Positions 10,215 to 63,555 of a DNA stretch of 64,000 bases are shown one piece after another. How positions within the stretch are numbered: the first letter of the stretch is position 1; the number at the start of each line of letters is the position of its first letter. This stretch comes from Parcubacteria group bacterium Athens0714_16 (lineage in GTDB: Bacteria > Patescibacteriota > Minisyncoccia > Phycocordibacterales > 21-14-all-36-13): assembly GCA_007376805.1 (NCBI GenBank), contig VMGX01000001.1, positions 1,034 through 65,033 of the forward strand, in the 5' to 3' direction. The position numbers were made by a program, and so were the translations under genes. The notes beneath the pieces were generated by a model. It had not been told where the DNA came from. It made no database searches and worked only from the letters and a program-made list of their open reading frames with translations.

Positions 10215-10799
10215 TTATTGCTTTGTTGTTTTTTTGCATCTTGTATAACAAAAACAATTTGCTGTATGGTCATTTACCATACCAACTGCTTGCATATGAG
10301 CATACACGACAGTTGGCCCCAAAAACTTAAACCCTCTTTTTTTCAAATCCTTTGAAAAATCTTCTGCTTCTTTTGTAATTGCAGGTAAATCTTTCAATGT
10401 TTTTCTCTTTCCATCAATTTGTTTTCCTTTTACAAATCCCCACATATATTTACTAAAGCTTCCAAATTCCCTCTGAACTTCTAAAAATCTTTTTGCGTTA
10501 TTAATAGTCGATTCTATTTTTAACTTATTTCTAATTATACCTATGTTTTTTAATAATTTATTAACATCTTTTTTTGTAAATTTGGATATTTTTTTCGGAT
10601 TAAAATTTGCGAAGGCTCTTTTATATCCATTTCTCCTGTAAAGTATTGTTCTCCAAGATAGCCCGGCTTGTGCACTCTCTAACACAAGAAATTCAAAAAT
10701 CTTTTTATCATCCTTTATTGGCACACCCCACTCCTCATCGTGATATCTTATCATTAGCAAATCATTACCAGGCCAAACACAACGAGTTTTTTCTTTCAT
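10215..10799 (-). CDS. tag: DNA-3-methyladenine glycosylase I
   Basis: CVWPGNDLLMIRYHDEEWGVP, FLVLESAQAGLSWRTIL and a C-terminal H..C..C zinc site, typical of Tag. Confidence 0.9.
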   Translation of the reverse strand: MKEKTRCVWPGNDLLMIRYHDEEWGVPIKDDKKIFEFLVLESAQAGLSWRTILYRRNGYKRAFANFNPKKISKFTKKDVNKLLKNIGIIRNKLKIESTINNAKRFLEVQREFGSFSKYMWGFVKGKQIDGKRKTLKDLPAITKEAEDFSKDLKKRGFKFLGPTVVYAHMQAVGMVNDHTANCFCYTRCKKTTKQ

Positions 10800-10931
10800 C
10801 CTGTAGTGAAAAATGGCATTGCTCTAAGAGAGCACGGCTATTTTTGTTGTTAATATTGATAAAATTTTTTCTCTTAAATTATACATTTTAATATTTTTTT
10901 TATTAATGCCATTTTCTACTACGGGATTCAT
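10800..10931 (-). mobile_element. Family A inverted-repeat mini-element, copy A1 (abuts tag ATG)
   Basis: Ends cctgtagtgaaaaatggcat ... atgccattttctactacggg plus attcat. Starts at the base after the tag start codon. Confidence 0.8.
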
Positions 10932-10948
10932 AACTTTTGTTGAACATT

Positions 10949-11173
10949 CTACAATTTTCCAATTTCTTTTAAATCTTTATCGGGTATATATAAAACTAAA
11001 AGACCAATCACAATCCCAACAATTCCACTATATAATGGGTTTATATTAAAAAATGAGTCAAAACTATCTAAAATATACCAAACACCACGCCAAACAAGAA
11101 CAAGCCCAATAACTACGGCAACATTTTTAGAAAAATAATTAATTAGAGATATTTTTTTTTGTTCTGTATTCAT
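10949..11173 (-). CDS. Small two-TM membrane protein
   Basis: 74-aa ORF with two hydrophobic helices. Its ATG abuts repeat A2. Confidence 0.4.
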   Translation of the reverse strand: MNTEQKKISLINYFSKNVAVVIGLVLVWRGVWYILDSFDSFFNINPLYSGIVGIVIGLLVLYIPDKDLKEIGKL

Positions 11174-11391
11174 CCTGTAGTGAAAAATGGCATTATTCTA
11201 AAAGAACGCGACCATTCTTACTATTAATACTAATAAAAAACTTATCCTGTGGTAAAATTATTTTTAATATTTTATATTTACGAGCTAATTTTATAAAAAA
11301 TATTACCTGCCCCGTGAAATTTAAAAACTATTTCACTGGGGTGGATTCAAAAGCTCATTCATCGCTTTTGAATTTTTACTACGGGATTCAT
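11174..11391 (-). mobile_element. Family A element, copy A2 (218 bp, carries extra nested hairpins; abuts ATG of 10949..11173)
   Basis: Same left end and the same terminal ctactacgggattcat. The interior has ccccgtgaaat/atttcactgggg and attcaaaagc/gcttttgaat hairpins. Confidence 0.75.
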
Positions 11392-11430: not shown

Positions 11431-11552
11431 CAAAACTCTCTAAATGAGAGTTTTGATCCATAATGCTTTGTTTTTTTGAAACTCTCTAAATGAGAGTTTT
11501 GATCCATAATGCTTTGTTTTTTTGTTTTTTTGAAACTCTCTAAATGAGAGTT
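11431..11552. repeat. Tandem repeat (about 46-54 bp x 2.5) of hairpin plus GATCCATAAT motif
   Basis: aaactctctaaatgagagttttgatccataatgctttgttttttt repeated. ORF 11430..11612 over it is spurious. Confidence 0.85.
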
Positions 11553-12312: not shown

Positions 12313-14052
12313 TCAACTAATTTTAAGTTTTTCTGCCCAGCAGTTTTTATTTTCTTCGTCTGGCACTGCAATTACCAATAATCTGCTCGGACGAGATATT
12401 GCCACATAGACATTTCTTAATTCTTCCTCTTCAGATATTTTACTGTTAGCTAACATAGTTTTGTAAGATTTCATCACTTTCTTTTTAAGAAATACAAGAA
12501 CTGCTTCAAAAGTTTCTCCTTTCACTTTATGAATTGTGCTAGGTCTATAGTCTGTTGGGACACTGTCAATATGTTCTTGTGGAAAGAGTTGAGAAAATTG
12601 TGCCTCCTTTAGGTTTTGATTTATTTTTAATTCAAATTCGTAATTTTTAGAACTAATGACTAAATTTGCTTCAGCTATCCACGCTCCAAGTCTAGTTGCA
12701 CTAACTGCTTTTGGGAGTAATTTTACAAATTTATATAACTCTTTTCTTAAGTTGCTAAATCCTCGTTCTTCAACAAACATATTAAAATTTTCTTCTGAAA
12801 AGTATGAGATGTTCTGTGTTGCCTTTAAGAAACCTCTTTCAATATATTTCATACCTCTAATAAAATCATTTCTATCATATAGGAACTTACCAAGAGCAAA
12901 ATCTCTGGTAAATGGAGATCCAACTAGCCAAGGACTTTCTCTATTGGGATTAGAGATAGCTTGTGTAAAAAAACTTTTTGACCTAAATAACACAGCTACA
13001 TTTTTAGGATTAAATTCAATACCATATTCCTTACACTTATTCTTGAAACTATTTAAGGTGGATTTTTTACCAGTAATAGTCTCCTCGTATGTCCATATTT
13101 CAGGACAGATATCACAGTCTTTTACTTTTTTATTAGTGGCAATGATTTTTCTTTCTCCTAATGAAGAAAAATTATAGACGACATCACATATTTTTTGTGA
13201 ACTACGCCAACTTTCATCTAGAATAATAGAATTGTTTTTCCAGTCCTGTTCTTTTTCTATGAATAAACTGGGTTTTGCGTCATTCCACTCAAATATAGCT
13301 TGATCTGGGTCGCCCACAATCATTATATTTTCCAAACCAGATTTTACAATAATATCTATGATTTGCATTTGTATTTCGGTGGTATCTTGTGCTTCATCAA
13401 TAATGAAAACAGGAAATCTTAAAGCCAATGATCTAGCAATTTTAGGATACTGCTCTAATATCTTTAATGCAAAATAGTTTGCATCTGCTTGAGTTGCAAA
13501 ACCCTTCTCATTAAAATCTTTCTTCATTTTTTGTAGTTTTTCATAATGACCATTCACTGTTTTTCCATTAGCATTTATTTTATTAGGAAAACCACCGAAG
13601 AAGTATTGAGCATCATTTTTTGGACACAAATCACCGTCTATTTTGTAACTAACTTTATCAAAGTATCTATTATAGTCTCTTTCATAAGCACCACCATTCC
13701 AAATACCGTATGGTTCTCCAACCATTATTGGGCGTTTTTCACAACCCAGAACAAGATGTCCAAACGGGAGAAAAATATATTGATTTATAAAACTATCAAT
13801 CGTGCCTAAAAAATGTGGGTAAGAAATGTGTGTATCAAAATCTTTTATACAGTTATCTCTTATTTCTTGCCAAGCAGTATTGGTAAAAGATATAGTAGCT
13901 ATACCTTTATATTCTTCAGTCCATTCAGATATTAACTTTGAGAATTTAGCTGAAACGCAGTATGTTTTACCGCTACCTGGACAAGCACGAACAACAAATT
14001 TTCCAGTTTTTCCTAAAACCTCTCTTTGTTTGTCTGATAATTTACTGAACAT
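12313..14052 (-). CDS. gajB: UvrD-like superfamily 1 helicase, GajB-like
   Basis: Walker A ACPGSGKTY, DEAQD box (FIIDEAQDT), and C-terminal VHKVKGETFEAVLV. It starts 3 nt after the gajA stop. Confidence 0.75.
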   Translation of the reverse strand: MFSKLSDKQREVLGKTGKFVVRACPGSGKTYCVSAKFSKLISEWTEEYKGIATISFTNTAWQEIRDNCIKDFDTHISYPHFLGTIDSFINQYIFLPFGHLVLGCEKRPIMVGEPYGIWNGGAYERDYNRYFDKVSYKIDGDLCPKNDAQYFFGGFPNKINANGKTVNGHYEKLQKMKKDFNEKGFATQADANYFALKILEQYPKIARSLALRFPVFIIDEAQDTTEIQMQIIDIIVKSGLENIMIVGDPDQAIFEWNDAKPSLFIEKEQDWKNNSIILDESWRSSQKICDVVYNFSSLGERKIIATNKKVKDCDICPEIWTYEETITGKKSTLNSFKNKCKEYGIEFNPKNVAVLFRSKSFFTQAISNPNRESPWLVGSPFTRDFALGKFLYDRNDFIRGMKYIERGFLKATQNISYFSEENFNMFVEERGFSNLRKELYKFVKLLPKAVSATRLGAWIAEANLVISSKNYEFELKINQNLKEAQFSQLFPQEHIDSVPTDYRPSTIHKVKGETFEAVLVFLKKKVMKSYKTMLANSKISEEEELRNVYVAISRPSRLLVIAVPDEENKNCWAEKLKIS

Positions 14053-14055
14053 AAA

Positions 14056-15813
14056 TTATTCATTTTTAGCAACATATTTTATAGCTTTTTCAATATATTT
14101 AGGGATGATAAAGTTATCAAAAGCCGATTGATCATTTTCTAGTCTAACCGCTAATCTGTGAGCTAATTCTGATTTTGATTTTTGATCATCAACTTTGTCA
14201 GCAAAATTCTTTGCATAAATTTTTTCATCTTTGTCTGGTGTTATTACTGTTAATGGATGAAATTCTTTATATATTTCTAATAATAATGTTTGATTATATT
14301 TACTTGCCAAAAAAAGCTCATATTCAAAAGTCATTTCTCCAGTAAAAACTTTTAATAAGCCAGTTTCTAATGTTTTTACTTTTCCTGCTCTTGTAGAACC
14401 ATCATCATTGATATTTTTCCTATCATCATCTGTTATAACGGCACAACGATGATTTATTCTTTTTTGTGAGTCAGATGAATTAAAAAGTTTTGCAAAGTGT
14501 TCAAAAGCAACCCCGTTTATATTTACAACTTCAATTCCAAGATTGTTAAGAAAATAATTTATACCTATCTTTTTACTGAAAATTGGTAATAATAATGACT
14601 CTGATATTCCTTCTACTAGGATTGTTCCATTTGCAAAGAATAACTGTGATTTTGTGACATCTAAAAATTTTTGAAGGAATTTTTTATTATTTTCATTTAG
14701 TTCAGAGTTTATTACAGAAAGAGCAAAAGTTTCATTTGATATATGTTGTAAAACAATCAAGGAGTCTAGACCAGCTTTTGCTGTTATTGTTGGAGAATGA
14801 GACGAAACAAAGGTCTGAAAATTTTGATTAGTAGAAAGTTCTGACAAATAATTAAAAAATAGGTTTTGTAGCTGTGGATGTAAGTGAGCTTCTGGTTCTT
14901 CAATTAAAAGTGAAAAATAAGAGTTTGAGTCTTTTTCTTTTTTTTGTTTTATGTCTCCTAAAACAGTAGCTATATATATTAAATTGTTATACCCCAAACC
15001 ATTCTGCCAAATACTCAAATAGCGTTGTTCGTAAGTAGGGTCTTTATCAAGAATATCTTTATCAAAAACTGGTATTTGTATATGTAGATTGTTAAGTATT
15101 TCCGCAAAACCAAGTCCACTAAAACTAATTTCTATTTTTTGAGTTTTATCAGAAAATGTAGTTTTATCTAAATGTTCACAGACTTTTTCTTTACCTTTAT
15201 TTATAAAATCTTTCCAATTTTCATTTTCTAACACCGTTTTTATTTCTTTTACCAATCCTTTTTTCTGCTCTTCTGTGTATGTTTCAATCTCGGAATAAAG
15301 TCTAGATAATTTACTATCTTTAAATGGTTTCAAAAACTGTTCTGCGTCTCGGAGAGCTCCCAAATGAACATAGTTAATTAACTGTAATACCTCATTAGAT
15401 ATTTGCTGTCCTTCATTTTCTCCACCCCATATTTTATATTTTAACTTTCCTTTTACATCTAAATAATATCTTATATGTAATTGTAGACTTGTTTCTCCAT
15501 TATCCTCATCAATTGTTAACATTTCTCTAAAAATTGCAGTTTCTGACTCATCTTCTATAACAAAAAGTAAATCAAATTTAACTTCATTTGTAATTTGAGC
15601 TGGATTGGTTCTGTCAATGTGAAAATCATTTTCTTTTGAAAAATATATATCTCTTCGTAAACTTCCCCAACCAAGAGATAAGCGTAAAGCATCAACGATT
15701 GCAGTTTTTCCAACATTGTTTTCTCCTACTAAAATATTGAGTCCTTTCTTAAAATGGAGAATGAGGTCTTTTACTGTTCTATAGTTTTGTATTCTAAAAT
15801 CTCTTAAATACAT
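14056..15813 (-). CDS. gajA: OLD-family ATPase plus Toprim nuclease, GajA-like
   Basis: From ATG 15811-15813: MYLRDFRIQNYRTVKDL..LVGENNVGKTAIVDAL (ABC/AAA15-type Walker A), LLIEEPEAHLHP (Walker B/D-loop), and Toprim ILVEGISE ... AVITDDD. The track start at 15924 runs into repeat X and is rejected. Confidence 0.8.
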   Translation of the reverse strand: MYLRDFRIQNYRTVKDLILHFKKGLNILVGENNVGKTAIVDALRLSLGWGSLRRDIYFSKENDFHIDRTNPAQITNEVKFDLLFVIEDESETAIFREMLTIDEDNGETSLQLHIRYYLDVKGKLKYKIWGGENEGQQISNEVLQLINYVHLGALRDAEQFLKPFKDSKLSRLYSEIETYTEEQKKGLVKEIKTVLENENWKDFINKGKEKVCEHLDKTTFSDKTQKIEISFSGLGFAEILNNLHIQIPVFDKDILDKDPTYEQRYLSIWQNGLGYNNLIYIATVLGDIKQKKEKDSNSYFSLLIEEPEAHLHPQLQNLFFNYLSELSTNQNFQTFVSSHSPTITAKAGLDSLIVLQHISNETFALSVINSELNENNKKFLQKFLDVTKSQLFFANGTILVEGISESLLLPIFSKKIGINYFLNNLGIEVVNINGVAFEHFAKLFNSSDSQKRINHRCAVITDDDRKNINDDGSTRAGKVKTLETGLLKVFTGEMTFEYELFLASKYNQTLLLEIYKEFHPLTVITPDKDEKIYAKNFADKVDDQKSKSELAHRLAVRLENDQSAFDNFIIPKYIEKAIKYVAKNE

Positions 15814-16151: not shown

Positions 16152-17147
16152 TTAATACAAAGTAAGATTTATAAGATGATTTATAAAACTTGGTAAACCT
16201 ACCCCAACCTCATTTAATTCTCTAACGAAAGGAGCATTTTCAGACAGGTCTGGCAAAGCATTCGTTTCCAACAAATAAATTCCCCTTCTTGGAGAAACAA
16301 TAAAATCAGATCTTGAGTAGTGTCTAAGATTCAAAACATTATGTGCTTTGTTCGCTATTTTTTGTACATCTTTTTTTAAACTTATGGGCAAACTTGTTGG
16401 ACATGAAAATGTTGTACCACCCGCCTGAGCGGGCAAGTCTTTTTTAGAATAATCAAAAAAATCTTCACCCTTATTTAATATTATTTCCAAAGGCATCAAC
16501 TCATATGTTTCTTCATTTCTAAAATTATCAATTACTCCACATGTGATTTGTTTTCCTTCTATAAATTCCTCAACTAAAATAGTCTCATATTTATTTAATA
16601 AATCTCCTAAAGAGAAAAGTAATGTATCGAAATCTCTCGCAACAAAAATATCATTTGAAGAGCCCCCAGAAACAGGCTTCATAATTAATGGTATACCAAA
16701 TCCCCTAAATATATCCAAAGCAATTTTTTCAACCTCCAAATCATTTTTTACAATTATATATCTAGGTGTTTTTAGCCCCGCATTTTCAAATATTTTTTTT
16801 GCAAAATATTTATTAAAACTCATAAGTGATGGCAACGCCCGAGAACCTGTGTATGGTATAGAAAAATTATTAAGAACTCTCTGTAGAGAACCGTCCTCAC
16901 CAAAATCACCGTGTATAGAATTTATAACTAAATCTACATCTCTCAATATTTTTTCTGGACTTGTTTGAACACCTCTAAGATTCCAAGATAAGTCTTTTGA
17001 AATAATTACATCTTTGACGATGTATTCTTTGGGTATATTTTTAATAAAGGATACGCCTGTATTTAAAGATAGTCCGCGTTCTTTCCCCGGACCACCCCGA
17101 AGAAGACCAATTTTTATTTCTTTTCCAGAATCAATAAAGTTTTTCAT
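16152..17147 (-). CDS. ddl: D-alanine--D-alanine ligase
   Basis: ATP-grasp fold (IPLIMKPVSGGSSNDIFV, LVEEFIEGKQITCGVI) and C-terminal SRSDFIV...YLLETNALP. Confidence 0.9.
   Translation of the reverse strand: MKNFIDSGKEIKIGLLRGGPGKERGLSLNTGVSFIKNIPKEYIVKDVIISKDLSWNLRGVQTSPEKILRDVDLVINSIHGDFGEDGSLQRVLNNFSIPYTGSRALPSLMSFNKYFAKKIFENAGLKTPRYIIVKNDLEVEKIALDIFRGFGIPLIMKPVSGGSSNDIFVARDFDTLLFSLGDLLNKYETILVEEFIEGKQITCGVIDNFRNEETYELMPLEIILNKGEDFFDYSKKDLPAQAGGTTFSCPTSLPISLKKDVQKIANKAHNVLNLRHYSRSDFIVSPRRGIYLLETNALPDLSENAPFVRELNEVGVGLPSFINHLINLTLY
16420..16443. repeat. GC-rich hairpin module H3 inside the ddl CDS
   Basis: cccgcctgagcgggcaagtctttt, 21/24 identical to 683..706, and also encodes KKDLPAQAG. 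Confidence 0.8.
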
Positions 17148-17282
17148 CCTGTAGTGAAAAATGGCATCGCTCTAAAAGAGCGCTGCTATTCTTGTTATTA
17201 ATATTGATAAATTTTCTTTCATGATATTACTTATTTTTGATATTTTCTTTCTCTTAATGCCATTTTCTACTACGGGATTCAT
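17148..17282 (-). mobile_element. Family A element, copy A3 (abuts ddl ATG)
   Basis: Same termini as A1, 135 bp. Confidence 0.8.
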
Positions 17283-28935: not shown

Positions 28936-29229
28936 CTATATTAGAAAAAGTGAAATCAAAAAGAGAATTACAAAACAAGCGAAAAATCCGACAGTTTTGA
29001 TGAAGAAAGAGAATGCTTCTTGTTTTTGATTTTCCATATAAAGATGAATTGGTTCAGACAGAAATAGAAATCCCATAATTGAAGCTGATAATACAAAAAG
29101 ACTCAACATAATCATAGGAATAATTATGGGGTCATCGTGCACCAAAATAAGGGTCACAATATTAATAACCAAAACAATAACAACAATATATAGTGCTGCT
29201 GCTATCGCATATAAAAATGGTTTCTTCAT
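28936..29229 (-). CDS. Small three-TM membrane protein
   Basis: 97-aa hydrophobic ORF. Its ATG abuts repeat A4. Confidence 0.4.
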   Translation of the reverse strand: MKKPFLYAIAAALYIVVIVLVINIVTLILVHDDPIIIPMIMLSLFVLSASIMGFLFLSEPIHLYMENQKQEAFSFFIKTVGFFACFVILFLISLFLI

Positions 29230-29363
29230 CCTGTAGTGAAAAATGGCATTACTCTAATAGAGTATTACTATTCTTGTTGTTAATGCTAATAAATTTTCTT
29301 TCGTAAAATTGTTCATTTTTTAATATTTTTTATATTCATGCCATTTTCTACTACGGAATTCAT
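29230..29363 (-). mobile_element. Family A element, copy A4 (abuts ATG of 28936..29229)
   Basis: Same termini (right end ctactacggaattcat), 134 bp. Confidence 0.8.
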
Positions 29364-30978: not shown

Positions 30979-31006
30979 TTTTTTTGTTGAGCATATTATC
31001 ACAATG

Positions 31007-31102
31007 CTTTGTGCGGGAAAATTCATAGGATATCCGGCATCACTCCGGTTCAATTAAGAGCGGCTGACAACCTGACTCTTCCTTGAATTTTCCCGCACAA
31101 AG
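31007..31102. other. 96-nt element closed by a perfect 19-bp stem, with a GC-rich three-way interior; unassigned structured element or MITE
   Basis: ctttgtgcgggaaaattca ... tgaattttcccgcacaaag. Inner hairpins ccgg-catcact-ccgg and agag-cggctgacaacctga-ctct. Confidence 0.5.
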
Positions 31103-31131
31103 TATTATTTTTTATTATTTAAAATACTAAT

Positions 31132-37527: not shown

Positions 37528-37678
37528 ACCCTGTTAAATAATTCTTATGTTTTATTTTTATAAAACATAAGAATTAAAAATTAATAATATAAATATGAAC
37601 AAAAATTTAAAAAATAAACTTTTAAAATTGAAAACATTCATAATTTTTTAATTATTTCTAATTTTTATTTAACAGGGT
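37528..37678. mobile_element. Family B inverted-repeat mini-element, copy B1
   Basis: accctgttaaata ... tatttaacagggt termini with an AT-rich interior. Confidence 0.7.
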
Positions 37679-37762: not shown

Positions 37763-37797
37763 TAAAAAATAAAAAAATAATTAACTAATAAATAATA

Positions 37798-37923
37798 TGA
37801 ATCCCGTTAGAGACAGCGGTCACGGGATTAAAAATAAAATTTAAAACAACATGAATTACGGTCGTAATATTATAAAAAATAAAAAGATAGATCGTGGGTT
37901 AACCGCGACCTGTCTCTAACGGG
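37798..37923 (+). mobile_element. Family A-like element with different stem sequence, abutting the topA ATG
   Basis: ATGAATCCCGTTAGAGACAG ... CTGTCTCTAACGGG then ATGAAA of topA. Same boundary logic (ATGAATCCCG ... CGGG|ATGAA). Confidence 0.65.
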
Positions 37924-40107
37924 ATGAAACTTTTAATCGTAGAATCACCAGCAAAATCAAAAACAATTTCAAAGTATCTCAACGATTTACCCGGAGATAC
38001 TGAGTATGTTGTAAAAGCAAGTGTTGGACATATAAGAGATCTACCAAAAAGTAACAAAAAGGCCATCGACATTGAGGCCGGCTTTATTCCTTATTACGAA
38101 ATAACAAAAGGCAAAGAAAAAATAATAAGTGAGTTAAAAAAATTTTCAAAAAAAGCAGACGAAGTTTTGTTGGCGACAGACCCCGACCGCGAGGGTGAAG
38201 CAATCGCGTGGCATATAAAAGAAGTTACCGGTTTAAAAAATCCTAAAAGAATTGTTTTCAACGAAATAACAAAGGAAGCCATTCAAGAAGCGATTAAACG
38301 TCCGCGTGAAATTGATGACGATCTAAGAAAGGCACAAGAAGCCAGAAGGGTTTTAGATCGACTCGTTGGCTATGATTTATCTGGATTAATTTGGAAAAAA
38401 GTAAGATACGGTCTTTCTGCTGGGAGAGTCCAGTCCCCGGCTCTTAGAATTGTAATGGAAAAAGAAAGAGAAATAAGAGCTTTCAAGCCAGAAGATTTTT
38501 GGACAATTACTGCTGATGTTGAAAACAAAGAAAAGTTTACATTAACTTGCGCTGAGGAACCGAGAGATAAAAAAGAGGTAGATAGAATCACCGAAGTCGG
38601 AGAAAAAGGAAAATGGATTGTTGGTGATATAAAAAAAACAGAAAGAAAACAATCCCCGAAAGCTCCATTTATAACTTCAACATTACAACAAACAGCAAGT
38701 AATAGATTGGGATTTTCTCCATCAAAGACAATGGGAGTTGCACAAAAATTATATGAATCGGGTTATATAACATATATGAGAACCGACAGTACTACACTGA
38801 GTTCAACCGCCATTGAACAAATGGAAAAAATAATCAAGAAAAAATATGGTGAAACATATTTTAAATTAAGAATTTATAAAAATAAGAGTAAGGTCGCACA
38901 GGAAGCACATGAAGCAATAAGACCTACAAATTTTAGCCTTGAAAATGCTGGTGCAAATGAAGAACAAAAAAGATTATACAAATTAATTTGGACAAGAACC
39001 GTTTCATCACAAATGGAAGATGCAAAAATATCTAACACAAAAATAATTGCAACAATAAATGATGGTGAAATACCAAATTTCAGTATAAACGGGTCAATCA
39101 TTCTTTTTGATGGATGGATGAAGATAGACAGAGATGATGGAGAAAAAAACAATGAACTACCAGACGTTTCTGTGGGTGAAAAACTAAAACTTCTTAAAAT
39201 AACTCCCGAAGCAAAACAAACACAACCACCCTCAAGATACACCGAAGCTGGCTTAATAAAAGAACTTGAAAAACGAGATATCGGCAGGCCGTCAACCTAC
39301 GCAACAATAATGAAAACTTTAAACGACCGTGGTTATGTTGAGAAAAAAAACAAAACACTTTTCCCCACCGACACTGGTGATGTGGTTAGTTCTTTTATTG
39401 AACAAAATTTTGAAAACTATGTGAGTGATTCTTTTACTGCTGAAATGGAAAATGAGCTTGATGAAATAGCAAACGGAAAAAGAGATTACACAAAAACATT
39501 AAAAGATTTTTATGGGCCATTTAATAAAATAGTTATGTCAAAAGAAAACATAGAAAAAATAACAAATATGGGCGATGCTCCAAGTGAATTTAAGTGCCCA
39601 GAATGTGGGGCTGATATGGTTATAAAATTAAGTAAAAATGGAAAATTTATGAGTTGTGGGAAATTCCCAGAATGTAATGGTGCAAGAACAATCGACGGAG
39701 GAATTATTGATCCACCCAAAGAAACCGGGGAACTTTGCCCTGATTGTAAAACAGGAAAACTGATAGAAAGACACGGCCGTTTTGGAAAATTTATTGCTTG
39801 TTCTAATTATCCAAAATGTAAATTTATAAAAGAAAGTGAAAATAATACTGAAAATCTAAAAAACGACACGGGCGTTGGTTGTCCAATTTGTAAGAAAGGA
39901 ACAATGGTAGAAAAGAAAGGAAAATTTGGAATATTTTATAGTTGTTCAAATTATCCAAAATGTAAGAACGCAATAAAAGCAAAACCAACTGGGGATATTT
40001 GTAAGGAATGCGGTTCTTTAATGATGGAAGGAACAAAAACAATACCGACCCGTTGTAGTAAAAAAGAATGTCCTAATCATAATCCTCATAAGCTGAAAAG
40101 CTCTTAG
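37924..40107 (+). CDS. topA: DNA topoisomerase I with C-terminal zinc ribbons
   Basis: MKLLIVESPAKSKTI Toprim, DPDREGE, active-site region YITYMRTDS, and three CxxC...CxxC ribbons. Confidence 0.95.
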   Translation: MKLLIVESPAKSKTISKYLNDLPGDTEYVVKASVGHIRDLPKSNKKAIDIEAGFIPYYEITKGKEKIISELKKFSKKADEVLLATDPDREGEAIAWHIKEVTGLKNPKRIVFNEITKEAIQEAIKRPREIDDDLRKAQEARRVLDRLVGYDLSGLIWKKVRYGLSAGRVQSPALRIVMEKEREIRAFKPEDFWTITADVENKEKFTLTCAEEPRDKKEVDRITEVGEKGKWIVGDIKKTERKQSPKAPFITSTLQQTASNRLGFSPSKTMGVAQKLYESGYITYMRTDSTTLSSTAIEQMEKIIKKKYGETYFKLRIYKNKSKVAQEAHEAIRPTNFSLENAGANEEQKRLYKLIWTRTVSSQMEDAKISNTKIIATINDGEIPNFSINGSIILFDGWMKIDRDDGEKNNELPDVSVGEKLKLLKITPEAKQTQPPSRYTEAGLIKELEKRDIGRPSTYATIMKTLNDRGYVEKKNKTLFPTDTGDVVSSFIEQNFENYVSDSFTAEMENELDEIANGKRDYTKTLKDFYGPFNKIVMSKENIEKITNMGDAPSEFKCPECGADMVIKLSKNGKFMSCGKFPECNGARTIDGGIIDPPKETGELCPDCKTGKLIERHGRFGKFIACSNYPKCKFIKESENNTENLKNDTGVGCPICKKGTMVEKKGKFGIFYSCSNYPKCKNAIKAKPTGDICKECGSLMMEGTKTIPTRCSKKECPNHNPHKLKSS

Positions 40108-55163: not shown

Positions 55164-56675
55164 ATGCCAAACAAAGAAGAAAAAAACATAACCGAACGAC
55201 CCCCTATTATTGTTGTAATGGGTCATGTTGACCATGGAAAATCAACTTTGTTAGATTACATAAGAAAGACAAATATTGTCGCCTCAGAAGCCGGTGGTAT
55301 AACCCAACACATATCTGCCTATGAAGTCGCTCATAAGAACAAGCAAGGTGCAGAACAAAAAATAACATTTCTTGATACTCCCGGGCACCAAGCATTTTCC
55401 GCAATGCGTTCAAGGGGGGCAAATGTTGCAGATATGGCAATTTTAGTTGTTTCAGCAGAAGACGGTGTAAAAACACAGACAATGGAAGCATATGAGGCAA
55501 TCAAAAAAGCTGACGTTCCGTTTGTTGTTGCAATAAACAAAATAGACAGACCACAAGCAAATTTAAATAAAGCAATATCTGATTTAATTGAAAATGGAAT
55601 TTATATTGAAGGATATGGTGGTGATATTCCATATGTTCCAATTTCTGCTAAAACAGGCGAAGGCGTTGATAAATTATTAGATATAATTTTATTGGTTTCT
55701 CAAATGGAAGAATTAAAAGGTGATAATTCTAAAAACGCAGAAGGTTTTGTTATTGAAACAAATGTTGACCCCAAAAAAGGTATTTCAGCAACTTTGATAA
55801 TAACAAATGGAAAAATAAAAAATGGTATGCACATAGCAGTTGGAGAAAGCATGGCACCCGTAAGAATAATGGAAGATTTTTCTGGTAAAAAAATTACAGA
55901 GGCAACATTTTCTTCTCCAATAAGAATAACTGGTTTTACAAAAGCACCAGAAATTGGATTACCTTTTAAAACATTTGAATCAAAAAAAGAAGCCGAACAA
56001 TATGCAGTCGAACATAAGGAACTAATTTGCAAAGAAAATAATAGTGGCATTCAAAATCAAAATTCATACAAAACAATTGTTCCCGTAGTTATCAAAGCCG
56101 ATGTTCTTGGAAGTGTTGAAGCGATTAAAAATGAAATAAGTAAATTGGCTAACGAAAAAATTTGTATCAGATTTGTTCAAACCGGTGTTGGTTCAATATC
56201 AGAAAACGATGTAAAAAACGTTGGTAATGACAAAAACACGTTGATTATAGGTTTTAATGTTTTAGTTGAAGACCTCGCAAATCAGATAGCAGAAAAATTT
56301 GAAACAAAAATAAAAGTTTTCAACATAATATATGAACTCACAGATTGGGTTAAGGGTGAAATAGAAAGAATCACACCAAAAATAAAAACTGAGGAAATTA
56401 CGGGCGTTGCAAAAATAATTAGAGTTTTCAGTAAAACAAGAGATAAACAAATTATAGGAGGACGAGTTGATGAAGGCACTTTGAAAATAAAAGAGAGTGT
56501 GAAAATTTTGAGAAGAGATGAAGAAATTGGGACTGGAGTCATTATAGAATTACAACAACAAAGAGCTGACATAAAAGAAGCTTCTGTTGGTACAGAGTTT
56601 GGTGCTAAAATAGAATCTAAGATTACAATCGCTCAGGGAGATAAAATAAAATCTTTCAACATCGTTGAAATTTAA
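55164..56675 (+). CDS. infB: Translation initiation factor IF-2 (short form, G domain onward)
   Basis: From ATG 55164: MPNKEEKNITERPPIIVVMGHVDHGKSTLLD, DTPGH, NKID. Confidence 0.9.
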   Translation: MPNKEEKNITERPPIIVVMGHVDHGKSTLLDYIRKTNIVASEAGGITQHISAYEVAHKNKQGAEQKITFLDTPGHQAFSAMRSRGANVADMAILVVSAEDGVKTQTMEAYEAIKKADVPFVVAINKIDRPQANLNKAISDLIENGIYIEGYGGDIPYVPISAKTGEGVDKLLDIILLVSQMEELKGDNSKNAEGFVIETNVDPKKGISATLIITNGKIKNGMHIAVGESMAPVRIMEDFSGKKITEATFSSPIRITGFTKAPEIGLPFKTFESKKEAEQYAVEHKELICKENNSGIQNQNSYKTIVPVVIKADVLGSVEAIKNEISKLANEKICIRFVQTGVGSISENDVKNVGNDKNTLIIGFNVLVEDLANQIAEKFETKIKVFNIIYELTDWVKGEIERITPKIKTEEITGVAKIIRVFSKTRDKQIIGGRVDEGTLKIKESVKILRRDEEIGTGVIIELQQQRADIKEASVGTEFGAKIESKITIAQGDKIKSFNIVEI

Positions 56676-61438: not shown

Positions 61439-62776
61439 TTATCGGCTTATGGGCTCTCCAGAAATTTTTGATGTCAAATTTTGTATCTCCATACTTGCTC
61501 TTTTAATAGAATCACTCACTCTAAATCTACTGGAAGTAACATTTTCAATCATATCTTTAAATATTGTGTTTGTCTCCGTAGAACTTGGATCCAACCAAGC
61601 CTTACCAATTATAGCAGAATCATAAAAAACACCCCTGTATGCATCTACCTGTTTTTCAGCAAGCAATGTTCTTTTTACTGGAGGCAAATTAAAATATTTG
61701 CTAAACAATAAAGAAGCATCGTCTCCAATTAAATAGCCGGCCACATTTATAACACTAGTTACATTAGCAGAACTTTTTAAAGCCGCTATGGCATTCATAT
61801 TTGCAAATGTTTTGTTTATTTTACTATTTCTTATTTGTGGTAATTTTGCTACATCAAAATTAAGGTTTGGATTTTTTTGTCTTAACACATTCAACTCGCT
61901 TGAAAAACCAAAATAAAATGCAAGATTACCAGCCAAAAATTCTTTTGAAGAATTACTGATTGATCTATTCCACGTATACATTTCCTTTGATGGATTTGAA
62001 AACTCGGTATAAAATCTAATTGCTGATTCTGTCGCGGGTACAACATTTCCTGTTTTTTCATCCAGCGCACTCTGAACTTTATTGTTAATATTTCTTGTTG
62101 TTACTAAATTACCGGCTTGCATAATTAATGCAGAAATAATTTCTTTAGCATTGTTAACATTGCTAAATTCACCGAATGCAATTGTTTCTCTCTGTAAATT
62201 TTGTGCATTATCTTTTAGAGTAATTTTTTTGACCATTGAATAAATTTCATCCCAATATACCGGCGGTTTAACAATTCCCGCATTTGATAACATATCTCTA
62301 TTCCAATACATAACCAGTGGGTCAATCGTAATTGGAAATGCTATAACGCCTTCATTGTTTAAAAAAATCTCTGCACCTTCTACAAAACTATCTTTAAAAT
62401 TTCTTTCAGAAAAACTAGAAAATGGAATACTAAATATTTTATTTTCGTATTTTAAAATTTTATCCTGAGAAAGAATAATCGCGTCTGGCCCAACACCTGA
62501 GGCAATGGCCTCTATTAATTGGCTATCAAAATTTTCTTTATCAATTTGTTTGTAGTTTATTTTAAATGGTGTTAAATCACTTGATCCAATTTCATTTGAA
62601 ATTTGATTGAATGTGTTTTTGTCCATTGTACCCCACAAAGATATTTCTGCCGTAATGATGCCCGAGTTTGGTTTTTGTGTCGCAAAGAAAATAACGCCAA
62701 TGACGGCAAAAACTGCGAAAACTGCAATTACTATTGTTTGAAAATTTTTCACCCCGTTAGAGATAGAGAGCCCCAA
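61439..62776 (-). CDS. Membrane-anchored extracellular solute-binding-protein-like protein
   Basis: N-terminal TM anchor, then a ~400-aa periplasmic-binding-protein-like sequence. Assignment is by overall pattern only. Confidence 0.5.
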   Translation of the reverse strand: MGLSISNGVKNFQTIVIAVFAVFAVIGVIFFATQKPNSGIITAEISLWGTMDKNTFNQISNEIGSSDLTPFKINYKQIDKENFDSQLIEAIASGVGPDAIILSQDKILKYENKIFSIPFSSFSERNFKDSFVEGAEIFLNNEGVIAFPITIDPLVMYWNRDMLSNAGIVKPPVYWDEIYSMVKKITLKDNAQNLQRETIAFGEFSNVNNAKEIISALIMQAGNLVTTRNINNKVQSALDEKTGNVVPATESAIRFYTEFSNPSKEMYTWNRSISNSSKEFLAGNLAFYFGFSSELNVLRQKNPNLNFDVAKLPQIRNSKINKTFANMNAIAALKSSANVTSVINVAGYLIGDDASLLFSKYFNLPPVKRTLLAEKQVDAYRGVFYDSAIIGKAWLDPSSTETNTIFKDMIENVTSSRFRVSDSIKRASMEIQNLTSKISGEPISR

Positions 62777-62876
62777 GCTCTCGTTGATTAATTAATAAAT
62801 TGCGACTTTTTAATTTAATTTTATATTTATTCATTATATTTGATAAATTATTACTCTGTGCAATCTCTAGCGGGGT

Positions 62877-63407
62877 TCATTGATTTTTTCTCAAAATAAA
62901 CCCGTAATGATATTCTCCAGCAGAAATCTTTTTTTCAACCAAAAAACCAGCTTCTTCTAAAAGTTTTTTCGCTGTTTCTTCTAATACAATACTTTCTTCT
63001 GAGGGGCCTATACCACCAAAAGAACCACTCCATTCTATAAAAAGTAGTCTTCCTCTTGATTTTATTATTCTAAAAACTTCTTTTAAAAAAGATTTCTTAT
63101 TTTCTACTTGAAAAAAAAGATTTGAAACAATCGCCGCATCGACTGATTCATTCCCCAAACGAGTACCATTTTCCTTTTCTGCATCACCCCAAATTATTTC
63201 TATGTTGAAAATATTGTTTTTTCTGGATTCGTTTTTTATTTTTGACAATAAATCGTTTTGAATATCAATTGCATAAACAACTCCGAGCTCTCCAACTTCC
63301 TTTGCTGCGGCAAAACTATTAAAACCAGAACCGGCACCAATATCAGCCACCTTCATTCCGTGACTTAAATTAAATTGTTTTATGTTGTTCTGTGGATCTA
63401 TAAACAT
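62877..63407 (-). CDS. Class I SAM-dependent methyltransferase
   Basis: Motif I VADIGAGSGFNS, motif II AIDIQ, post-I acidic residue. Confidence 0.75.
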   Translation of the reverse strand: MFIDPQNNIKQFNLSHGMKVADIGAGSGFNSFAAAKEVGELGVVYAIDIQNDLLSKIKNESRKNNIFNIEIIWGDAEKENGTRLGNESVDAAIVSNLFFQVENKKSFLKEVFRIIKSRGRLLFIEWSGSFGGIGPSEESIVLEETAKKLLEEAGFLVEKKISAGEYHYGFILRKNQ

Positions 63408-63555
63408 TTACCCTGTTAAATAAAATTTGAACTTTTTTTCAAATTTTAATTTTAAATTTTTAATTATTAAAAATATGACCATTGTGTTCTCCTGTCTTTC
63501 TTTATTACACTCATAAAAATACCACTTTTTATTTAAAATTATTTAACAGGGTAAA
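63408..63555. mobile_element. Family B element, copy B3, between SD and ATG of the methyltransferase gene
   Basis: tttaccctgttaaataa ... ttatttaacagggtaaa perfect termini. AAGGAG at 63556..63561, ATG at 63405..63407. Confidence 0.75.

Follow-up and report, generated by a model that had tools for sequence, protein, structure and literature searches.

Mobile, MITE-like hairpin elements at the start codons of Patescibacteria genes

Why does a short inverted repeat occur again and again exactly at the first codon of unrelated genes, and how are the genes behind it still expressed? The question is raised by a stretch of 64,000 nucleotides (nt) from Parcubacteria group bacterium Athens0714_16 (contig VMGX01000001.1 of assembly GCA_007376805.1, positions 1,034 to 65,033), referred to here as the window, in which four copies of such a repeat each directly precede an ATG. 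A previous interpretation of the window, made from the letters alone (the sequence-only reading), had proposed either a miniature inverted-repeat transposable element (MITE) with an ATGAA target duplication or a conserved leader or regulatory RNA. The repeats are a mobile, non-coding, non-autonomous MITE-like hairpin element, and the first base of the start codon behind a copy is supplied by the element itself.

The four copies of the first family (family-1) all lie on the minus strand, where the sequence-only reading had placed them, and each has ATGAAT at its far end as described there. In gene orientation they consist of ATGAAT, a distal repeat CCCGTAGTAGAAAATGGCAT, an A-rich interior, a small hairpin, a proximal repeat ATGCCATTTTTCACTACAGG and the ATG of a genuine gene, which directly follows the last base of the core. 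The terminal 20-mer pattern occurs seven times in the window, compared with 0.02 occurrences expected. The copy c1 (10799..10926) is made up of a core at 10800-10925 plus a terminal pair (T at 10926 and A at 10799, in gene orientation), and the A at 10799 opens the start codon of tag, the gene for DNA-3-methyladenine glycosylase I (Adenine_glyco, 194 aa; 10215..10799, minus strand), which begins right behind the copy. Its distal start-site copy ATGAA is found at 10927..10931 and the proximal one at 10799..10795, with the target duplication TGAA at 10930..10927. The copy c2 (11173..11386; core 11174-11385; distal ATGAAT 11391..11386) precedes an open reading frame (ORF) for a 74-aa membrane protein with its ATG at 11173..11171; c3 (17147..17277; core 17148-17276; distal ATGAAT 17282..17277) precedes ddl (331 aa, ATG 17147..17145); and c4 (29229..29358; core 29230-29357; distal ATGAAT 29363..29358) precedes a 97-aa ORF (ATG 29229..29227).

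The described layout holds for the four copies with two amendments. The distal repeat of c4 begins with TCCG rather than CCCG, and c2 is without most of its distal repeat, which is broken up by nested small hairpins in the copy's interior (11194-11385; ATTCAAAAGC..GCTTTTGAAT and CCCCAGTGAAAT..ATTTCACGGGG) and cut down to CCCGTAGTA; the downstream gene retains an intact proximal repeat and its ATG. The small gene-proximal hairpin of c1, GCTCT-CTT-AGAGC at 10820..10834 on the minus strand, lies immediately 5' of the proximal repeat, and hairpins occupy the equivalent position on the same strand in c2 (about 11194-11210), c3 (17168-17183) and c4 (29250-29265). Separately, the spacer upstream of c2 contains a perfect tandem duplication (11433-11524) with a 46-nt unit and one small hairpin per unit (AAACTCTC..GAGAGTTT).

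The window also carries two copies of a sister family (family-2, repeats CCCGTTAGAGA...) with the same flank architecture. One of them, at 37802..37924 on the plus strand (core 37803-37923, repeats CCCGTTAGAGACAG...), precedes topA (727 aa), with its distal ATGAAT at 37797-37802 and the gene ATG at 37924-37926. The other, at 62752..62875 on the minus strand (core 62874..62753), has C...G termini and precedes a gene for a solute-binding protein. Here the distal motif is ATGAA (62880..62876) and the proximal start codon is GTG (62752..62750), the G being the last base of the element; because the distal ATGA overlaps the TGA stop codon of the upstream gene, this copy is operon-internal. Overall, about six of the roughly 66 ORFs in the window carry an element.

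Placement at start codons is not confined to this stretch. One genome per species was scanned with the exact repeat alone, the flanks not being part of the pattern. The resulting sample contains at least 116 loci (individual loci are given below by L numbers); six of these are single chance matches in other phyla, and the rest are in Patescibacteria metagenome-assembled genomes (MAGs) from 46 assemblies. The following counts refer to the matches listed by the scan, in which the host MAGs bear names such as Paceibacterota, Nomurabacteria, Zambryskiibacteria, Wolfebacteria and Minisyncoccia. With the window included, an nhmmer profile finds 121 elements, 111 of them full length; element length ranges from 108 to 179 bp and is usually 120-135 bp. 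An ATG (rarely GTG) directly follows the proximal repeat in 103 of the 111 full-length copies, spread over at least 46 assemblies, and the ORF behind it is mostly longer than 100 codons. In 90 of these 103, an ATG or GTG is also present 5-7 nt before the distal repeat. The share at start codons is thus 93%, compared with about 33% predicted if tolerated ATGNA sites, those where no ORF is interrupted, were used uniformly. Going by the interior and the small hairpin, about 109 copies point the same way relative to the gene and two are inverted, so that the fixed orientation noted for the window copies extends across the 46 assemblies. The genes served (tag, ddl, topA, scpA-like and transport genes) are unrelated in function.

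Did the copies arrive by insertion, or were they inherited along with the genes? Several observations indicate insertion. The two flanks of a copy co-vary at positions 4-5, where ATGAA, ATGGA, ATGCA, ATGTA, ATGAG and ATGTT are all found. Two copies in the same MAG (L063 and L073) agree at every one of 161 nt, a nested 31-nt mini hairpin among them, and stand before different genes, one copy flanked by ATGAA and the other by ATGGA. Orthologous genes in other species can lack the element and show an undisturbed site, as in the comparison of empty L013 with filled L054 and L095. The same gene start has been hit independently at L007 and L033, where the duplication lengths differ, and tandem as well as nested copies occur. 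The elements have terminal inverted repeats, a target duplication derived from the recipient, small size, many copies and no conserved ORF, all of them features of MITEs. The 31-nt mini hairpins (TCCCAGTAGCAGAGC-AAA-GCTCGCTACGGGA and CCCCAGTAGTAGAGC..; L063 90-125, L073, L050 215-245 and L104 960-990) have termini in common with the large elements, in which they are nested and with which they are co-mobile.

The alternative is vertical inheritance: many genes would share a cis-regulatory leader acting as an attenuator, a thermometer or a riboswitch-like RNA, or would each be preceded by a conserved small gene (MNPVVENGI...). A conserved structure that is always in the 5' leader, with compensatory changes in the small hairpin and neighbouring segments capable of alternative pairings, would suit such a leader. 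The empty orthologous sites and the identical copies at unrelated genes with different duplications contradict it, and the tandem and nested copies and the functional diversity of the genes also speak against it. Comparison with Rfam 15 gave no match for the element; only tRNAs reached the gathering score, and miRNA matches were at chance level (E up to 5). The upstream ORF was compared in 90 copies. Their peptides have only the repeat-encoded residues M[NDHY]PVVENGI in common, their stop codons fall at distances of 4 to 146 nt ahead of the gene ATG, and their frames relative to that ATG are distributed 26/34/30, none of which is expected of a conserved small gene. An inherited leader or small gene is accordingly very improbable.

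The same comparison disposes of a proposed detail, that a conserved TAG in the loop of the small hairpin closes the upstream ORF about 20 nt before the gene. The loop TAG serves as the stop in only four of the 90 copies, and in the window only in c1 and c3; the upstream ORFs of c2 and c4 end after 10 and 16 codons. Given the rarity of this stop, the scatter of the others and the random frame, termination-reinitiation at the loop TAG cannot be the general mechanism of expression that had been suggested. An in-frame N-terminal extension or readthrough of the stop codon was likewise ruled out by the distribution of frames.

The exact boundaries of the mobile unit can be derived from the termini. 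Elements of this superfamily end in N'CCCGT(T)AG...CT(A)ACGGGN and are abundant in Paceibacteria-type Patescibacteria. In family-1 the terminal inverted repeats are T-CCCGTAGTAGAAAATGGCAT and ATGCCATTTTTCACTACAGG-A, giving a unit T-CCCGTAG...CTACGGG-A. The repeats are 20 nt long, or 22 nt with the terminal pair and the next base, and 99.4% of cells are paired across 76 copies, in agreement with the pairing termini of the sequence-only reading. The sister family was sampled in a metagenome scan that yielded 126 elements. Of these, 47 have T...A termini, and 42 of the 47 are on ATG; 68 have C...G termini and are mostly intergenic at G|TAAA, on neither start nor stop codons. Once one terminal base per side is removed, a perfect 4-bp duplication is present in 75 of the 126, with 3 or 5 bp being rare.

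Copies with mismatched start codons are the most informative. Six T...A copies (L013, L053, L069, L072, L090 and L030) have a distal GTG and a proximal ATG, whereas four C...G copies on ATG sites (the window copy at 62880..62750, L172, L237 and L224) read ATGAA-C at the distal and G-TGAA at the proximal end. It follows that the mobile unit is N'CCCG...CGGGN, that the duplication is TGNA, and that the start codon of the gene begins with the final base of the element. The idea of a MITE with target duplication at the start codon therefore stands, with the duplicated target being the 4-bp TGNA instead of ATGAA. T...A elements convert GTG starts to ATG, and their C...G relatives convert ATG to GTG. 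Since the last base of a T...A element is an A, the TGNA on the gene side follows an A once more, and the ORF retains both an ATG and its native N-terminus. An origin of the extra T as a palindromic P nucleotide was rejected, as the extra base is complementary to the initial base of the repeat and not to its final one.

Some further observations concern the C...G relatives and the terminal pair. The 68 C...G elements (within L118-L237; for example, L126 2286-2399 and L186 1188-1317) lie at G|TAAA, often shortly upstream of a Shine-Dalgarno (SD) sequence. Targeting of stop codons by these elements was considered and ruled out, as just 6 of 31 copies have a TAA that ends a long ORF. There is a correlation between the terminal base pair and the base ahead of the duplication: T...A goes with A, and C...G with G.

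These boundaries show how an element comes to lie on a start codon. Integration at A|TGNA with a 4-bp duplication, occasionally 3 or 5 bp, puts it there and leaves the original ATG beside the gene's own initiation signals. Most likely, the exclusivity reflects a preference of the transposase for the sequence ATGRA, combined with strong loss of copies elsewhere. Position 5 of the target is A in 92% of sites, compared with 42% of control starts; G occurs in 5% of family-1 sites and also in family-2 flanks (ATGAGT, ATGCGT), T in 3% and C in 0%. At L104 (715-1050), an element of family-1b (F1b, repeats CCCGTAGTAGAATTTCAAAT) has inserted into a family-1 element at an internal ATGAA that is not a start codon and has duplicated this ATGAA, which indicates that the sequence itself is recognised.

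Selection might also act as the only filter. In that case, the transposase would recognise approximately TGRA or ATGRA anywhere, and only copies on real start codons would persist, genic copies being lethal and those in intergenic DNA, which is scarce in such compact genomes, either harmful (with the hairpin blocking or terminating expression unless a ribosome enters) or soon deleted. The F1b copy fits this account, as the internal non-start ATGAA of another element is neutral DNA. The reconstructed target profile matches ordinary ATGRA gene starts, with no additional conserved positions. Moreover, the intergenic location of the C...G relatives, which have the same termini, implies machinery that is not inherently gene-bound, and there are a few T...A copies at A|TAAA or shifted by 2 nt (L168, L233, L036 and L222). 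However, selection would have to put the whole set of 687 non-coding ATGNA sites at a disadvantage of at least 20-fold compared with 332 start sites and, in addition, generate the near-absolute orientation bias of about 109:2; the MITEs of other bacteria, by comparison, are mainly intergenic. We take selection alone to be a serious candidate, although one that falls somewhat short of an even chance.

The sequence ahead of the elements suggests a particular kind of gene start. A TANNNT (TATAAT-like) box is present 6-8 nt before the distal ATG at 42 of 84 sites, compared with 156 of 669 control genes (p = 1e-6); in the window, c3 has TATAAT and then 7 nt ahead of its distal ATGAAT. SD-like motifs are found at 2% of element sites and 8% of controls, and empty orthologous sites have the same spacing of the -10 box. 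The position of this box indicates that many element-bearing genes are leaderless. At such sites, the distal ATG is the predicted start of transcription, and the element would form the first ~130 nt of the mRNA. This context is not universal, as seen from the operon-internal copy at 62880..62750. At two independent loci with elements of different families, L106 (about 1273) and L160 (about 2522), the TATAAT box directly adjoins the distal repeat, with no distal ATG left; there, the transcript probably starts inside the 5' arm. Within the elements, -10-like hexamers show no positional peak that would indicate an internal outward promoter, nor is there a -10 box in the proximal repeat at the spacing of a leaderless start. 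No intrinsic terminator was found in the sense orientation; a weak terminator-like hairpin is present only on the antisense strand of c1. The initiation factor IF-2 homologue encoded in the window (55164-56675) has only 503 aa and is without the long N-terminal region, as would suit an organism with a reduced translation apparatus, few SD sequences and many leaderless genes.

The promoter context raises the possibility of active targeting, in which integration would be directed to the opening bases of leaderless genes, for instance by the promoter open complex or RNA polymerase, much as Ty3 integrates at RNA polymerase III start sites. The enrichment of the -10 box 6-8 nt upstream in element-bearing genes (50% versus 23%), the coincidence of the insertion point with +1/+5 of the predicted transcript and the extreme exclusivity of placement and orientation would all be accounted for. 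Nevertheless, the window copy at 62880..62750 lies inside an operon, a -10 box at leaderless spacing is absent from about half of the sites, no copies were seen at the transcription starts of leadered genes (that is, with non-ATG flanks), and the nested copy at an internal ATGAA points to recognition of sequence. We consider guidance of this kind unlikely, and return to a sequence preference plus loss of copies elsewhere.

How could a gene be translated behind such a structure? The RNA of the window copies is predicted to fold into a stem of 20-22 bp (dG -28 to -42 kcal/mol, z-scores about -4.2 to -6.5), starting 4 nt downstream of the predicted 5' end. Its base pairs the A and U of the true AUG: in the folded strand, distal A5 and T6 pair with proximal T2 and A1. 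The stem is nearly invariant in sequence; covariation is consequently uninformative here, and the pattern is as expected from recognition by a transposase. The small hairpin behaves differently. It folds better than shuffled sequences in 87 of 102 copies and, in an alignment not fitted to structure, shows double-sided changes at all five pairs, bearing out the compensatory substitutions reported for the window copies. It has no mirror at the distal end, and neighbouring segments permit alternative pairings.

According to the model that we favour, the element would be transcribed as the first ~130 nt of the mRNA and fold into the 20-22-bp stem. Ribosomes starting from the distal AUG may then read the short, non-conserved ORF into the 5' arm and melt the stem, which would expose the proximal AUG to SD-independent initiation, so that the original initiation site would still drive the gene. 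Our preference for this route is weak; processing by RNase III and RNase J to a near-leaderless mRNA, or an initiating ribosome that bridges the folded hairpin, could serve instead. The upstream ORF is open through the 5' arm in both common duplication classes.

The processing route can be extended into a full alternative, in which the stem is punctuation in the RNA. RNase III would cut the stem and RNase J would trim the product, leaving the AUG at or near a monophosphorylated 5' end for leaderless translation, with the distal ATG irrelevant. A near-perfect stem of 20-22 bp has the minimal size of an RNase III substrate, and the predicted stem ends exactly at the AUG. Stem and gene are intact in copies without a distal ATG, and leaderless starts are widespread and SD sequences rare in these genomes. 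RNase III and RNase J also belong to the small set of ribonucleases that at least 90% of candidate phyla radiation (CPR) genomes retain (PMC12641178). Arguing the other way, RNase III cleaves within a stem and not at its base, and thus a leader of ~10 nt would remain; c2 and copies of the L106/L160 type are without the full stem; and an invariant, non-covarying stem fits recognition of the DNA by a protein equally well or better. RNA punctuation is possible in our view, but doubtful.

Taken as a whole, an element that inserts at start codons, together with the melting model and the mixture of sequence preference and loss, is on balance the probable explanation. Several points weigh against it. 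The requirement for exact terminal repeats and the use of listed matches favour young, intact copies, and degenerate copies away from genes could escape the census. No extended target motif beyond ATGRA was found that distinguishes element sites from ordinary ATGRA gene starts, or real starts from ATGRA sites elsewhere, and active targeting of start codons therefore does not follow. The interiors of orthologous filled sites are 68-82% identical while third codon positions are saturated, and paralogous copies are equally similar, so that constraint in situ is inseparable from re-insertion. For melting by ribosomes from the distal AUG, the loss of the distal ATG in 13 of 103 copies, the TATAAT boxes abutting the element at L106 and L160, and c2, which has no intact stem, all mean that this is not the sole route. 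A test of frame, asking which duplication-length classes close the upstream ORF in family-1 compared with family-2, gave p = 0.0025 but is confounded by family-specific duplication lengths, as C...G family-2 copies away from genes are also without 5-bp duplications. Finally, no autonomous partner or transposase with the same termini was found in 1.6 Mb of loci, viral contigs, and phage and plasmid records.

The search for such a partner paired termini 400-5000 nt apart. Among the candidates that it returned, L050 and L067 each turned out to be two separate small elements, and L098 consists of unrelated mini hairpins flanking a gene. The viral contigs gave one chance match, inside a coding region, and the phage and plasmid records AT-rich chance matches only. 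No multi-copy ORF family was found in the loci, and there is no transposase among the ten longest ORFs of the window. In its structure the element conforms to a MITE, the exception being a cognate transposase, of which these searches found none. The L098 structure (1283-2690) is of some interest in itself, as a conserved 366-aa gene lies between inverted repeats of ~110 nt that contain CCC-TTCG-GGG and CCC-GTA-GGG mini hairpins and GGAGATCTCC palindromes.

Rather than a MITE of the DDE type, the repeat might be an element of the repetitive extragenic palindromic (REP) or REPIN type, mobilised via single-stranded hairpin DNA by a REP-associated tyrosine transposase (RAYT; HUH Y1). An inverted doublet that forms one long hairpin is typical of this class; GTAG motifs are present in the termini, and the genomes concerned also hold 31-nt mini hairpins, scattered or nested, that have these termini too. 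In addition, target positions 1, 2 and 5 can pair with the terminal base and each other across the junction, extending the hairpin by 2 bp, and insertion is orientation-specific, as it is for IS200/IS605 elements. Transposition by Y1 enzymes, however, does not make true target duplications such as those seen here, which co-vary at variable positions, and REPINs are described as extragenic; no RAYT gene was seen, though no search aimed at RAYT was made. Mobilisation by a RAYT is quite unlikely on this evidence. Insertion of the IS200/IS605 type without any duplication was ruled out by the co-varying flanks and the identical copies with different flanks.

What would the presence of these elements mean for their hosts? 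Very compact genomes offer mobile DNA hardly any safe landing sites, and landing on a start codon while restoring it is a new route to coexistence with essential genes such as ddl, topA and tag. We tentatively suggest an element specialised for start codons and transparent to translation, comparable to an intron in its stealth but acting at the translation start, with a hairpin that is melted, bridged or clipped by RNase III/RNase J; it may reach about a tenth of the genes in some Patescibacteria and may stabilise leaderless mRNAs. The possible role as a 5' stabiliser is suggested by the start of the stem 4 nt from the predicted 5' end. The copies also amount to an experiment, repeated by nature, on start-codon choice behind a hairpin of 130 nt in bacteria with few SD sequences and many leaderless genes. 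For annotation, gene callers may choose the distal ATG or extend ORFs into the element, and the type of element can switch the start between ATG and GTG. The invariant termini provide a handle for finding the transposition enzyme in Patescibacteria.

A few other features of the window can be mentioned. Another family of inverted repeats, with termini (TA)CCCTGTTAAATAA...TTATTTAACAGGG(TA), is present at 37530-37676 and 63412-63550. The second copy has an AGGAG on one side and, on the other, the ATG (63407..63405, minus strand) with which a 176-aa gene begins; as its removal would give AGGAG-N5-7-ATG, a 139-nt hairpin apparently separates the SD sequence from the start codon. On the minus strand at 12313-15813, a UvrD-like helicase gene (579 aa) adjoins one for an OLD/TOPRIM AAA ATPase (585 aa), and this Gabija-like pair may be a defence system. 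At 31003-31106 there is a 23-nt inverted repeat (AATGCTTTGTGCGGGAAAATTCA), 96% complementary with 58 nt between the arms, which is unrelated to the element families.

In the full-text literature searched, neither a hairpin element specific to start codons nor these repeat sequences have been described, but several known systems resemble the element in part. The Correia elements of Neisseria (Correia repeat enclosed elements, CREE) are similar in size (~100-150 bp) and in having terminal inverted repeats, a target duplication, no ORF and many copies. They are co-transcribed with neighbouring genes, and their repeats form a long RNA stem, as predicted for the present element; in Neisseria this stem is cut by RNase III. 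They differ in duplicating TA and in occupying varied intergenic positions, whereas the present element duplicates TGNA at a start codon in fixed orientation, completes that codon with its last base, and has no cognate transposase found. REPs and REPINs share the inverted doublet that forms one hairpin, the GTAG-containing heads, the hundreds of copies and the small single hairpins elsewhere in the genome, but they are extragenic with no reported target duplication, in contrast to a 4-bp duplication on start codons. The palindrome-associated transposable elements (PATEs) derived from IS200/IS605 are likewise small, hairpin-rich and strictly oriented to a short asymmetric target; IS200/IS605 elements have neither terminal inverted repeats nor a target duplication, while the element described here has both, with co-varying flanks.

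Other parallels concern the way in which an insert is tolerated. Rickettsia palindromic elements (RPEs) are also palindromic, mobile, ~100-150 bp long, found in reduced genomes and tolerated within transcribed gene regions; however, they lie in frame within ORFs and are translated, whereas in the present case the frame is random (26/34/30), there are internal stops and the protein is unchanged. The 5' stabiliser hairpins of ompA and ermC have a stable stem within 4 nt of the 5' end, which is a predicted end here, and in phage T4 gene 38 the base of a hairpin places upstream initiation signals beside the AUG, much as the base of the present stem would. All three of these hairpins are fixed, gene-specific leaders, and the present one is a mobile cassette. 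As in T4 gene 60, the byp elements of mitochondria, IStrons and inteins, a selfish insert resides in an expressed gene and leaves the protein product unchanged. In the present element a hairpin lies between matched AUG(AA) repeats and the upstream ORF runs into the arm; the hallmarks of gene 60, a stop right behind the take-off codon and a nascent-peptide signal, are absent. Those inserts are removed by hopping or splicing, whereas the insert described here precedes a rebuilt start codon, so that no removal is needed.

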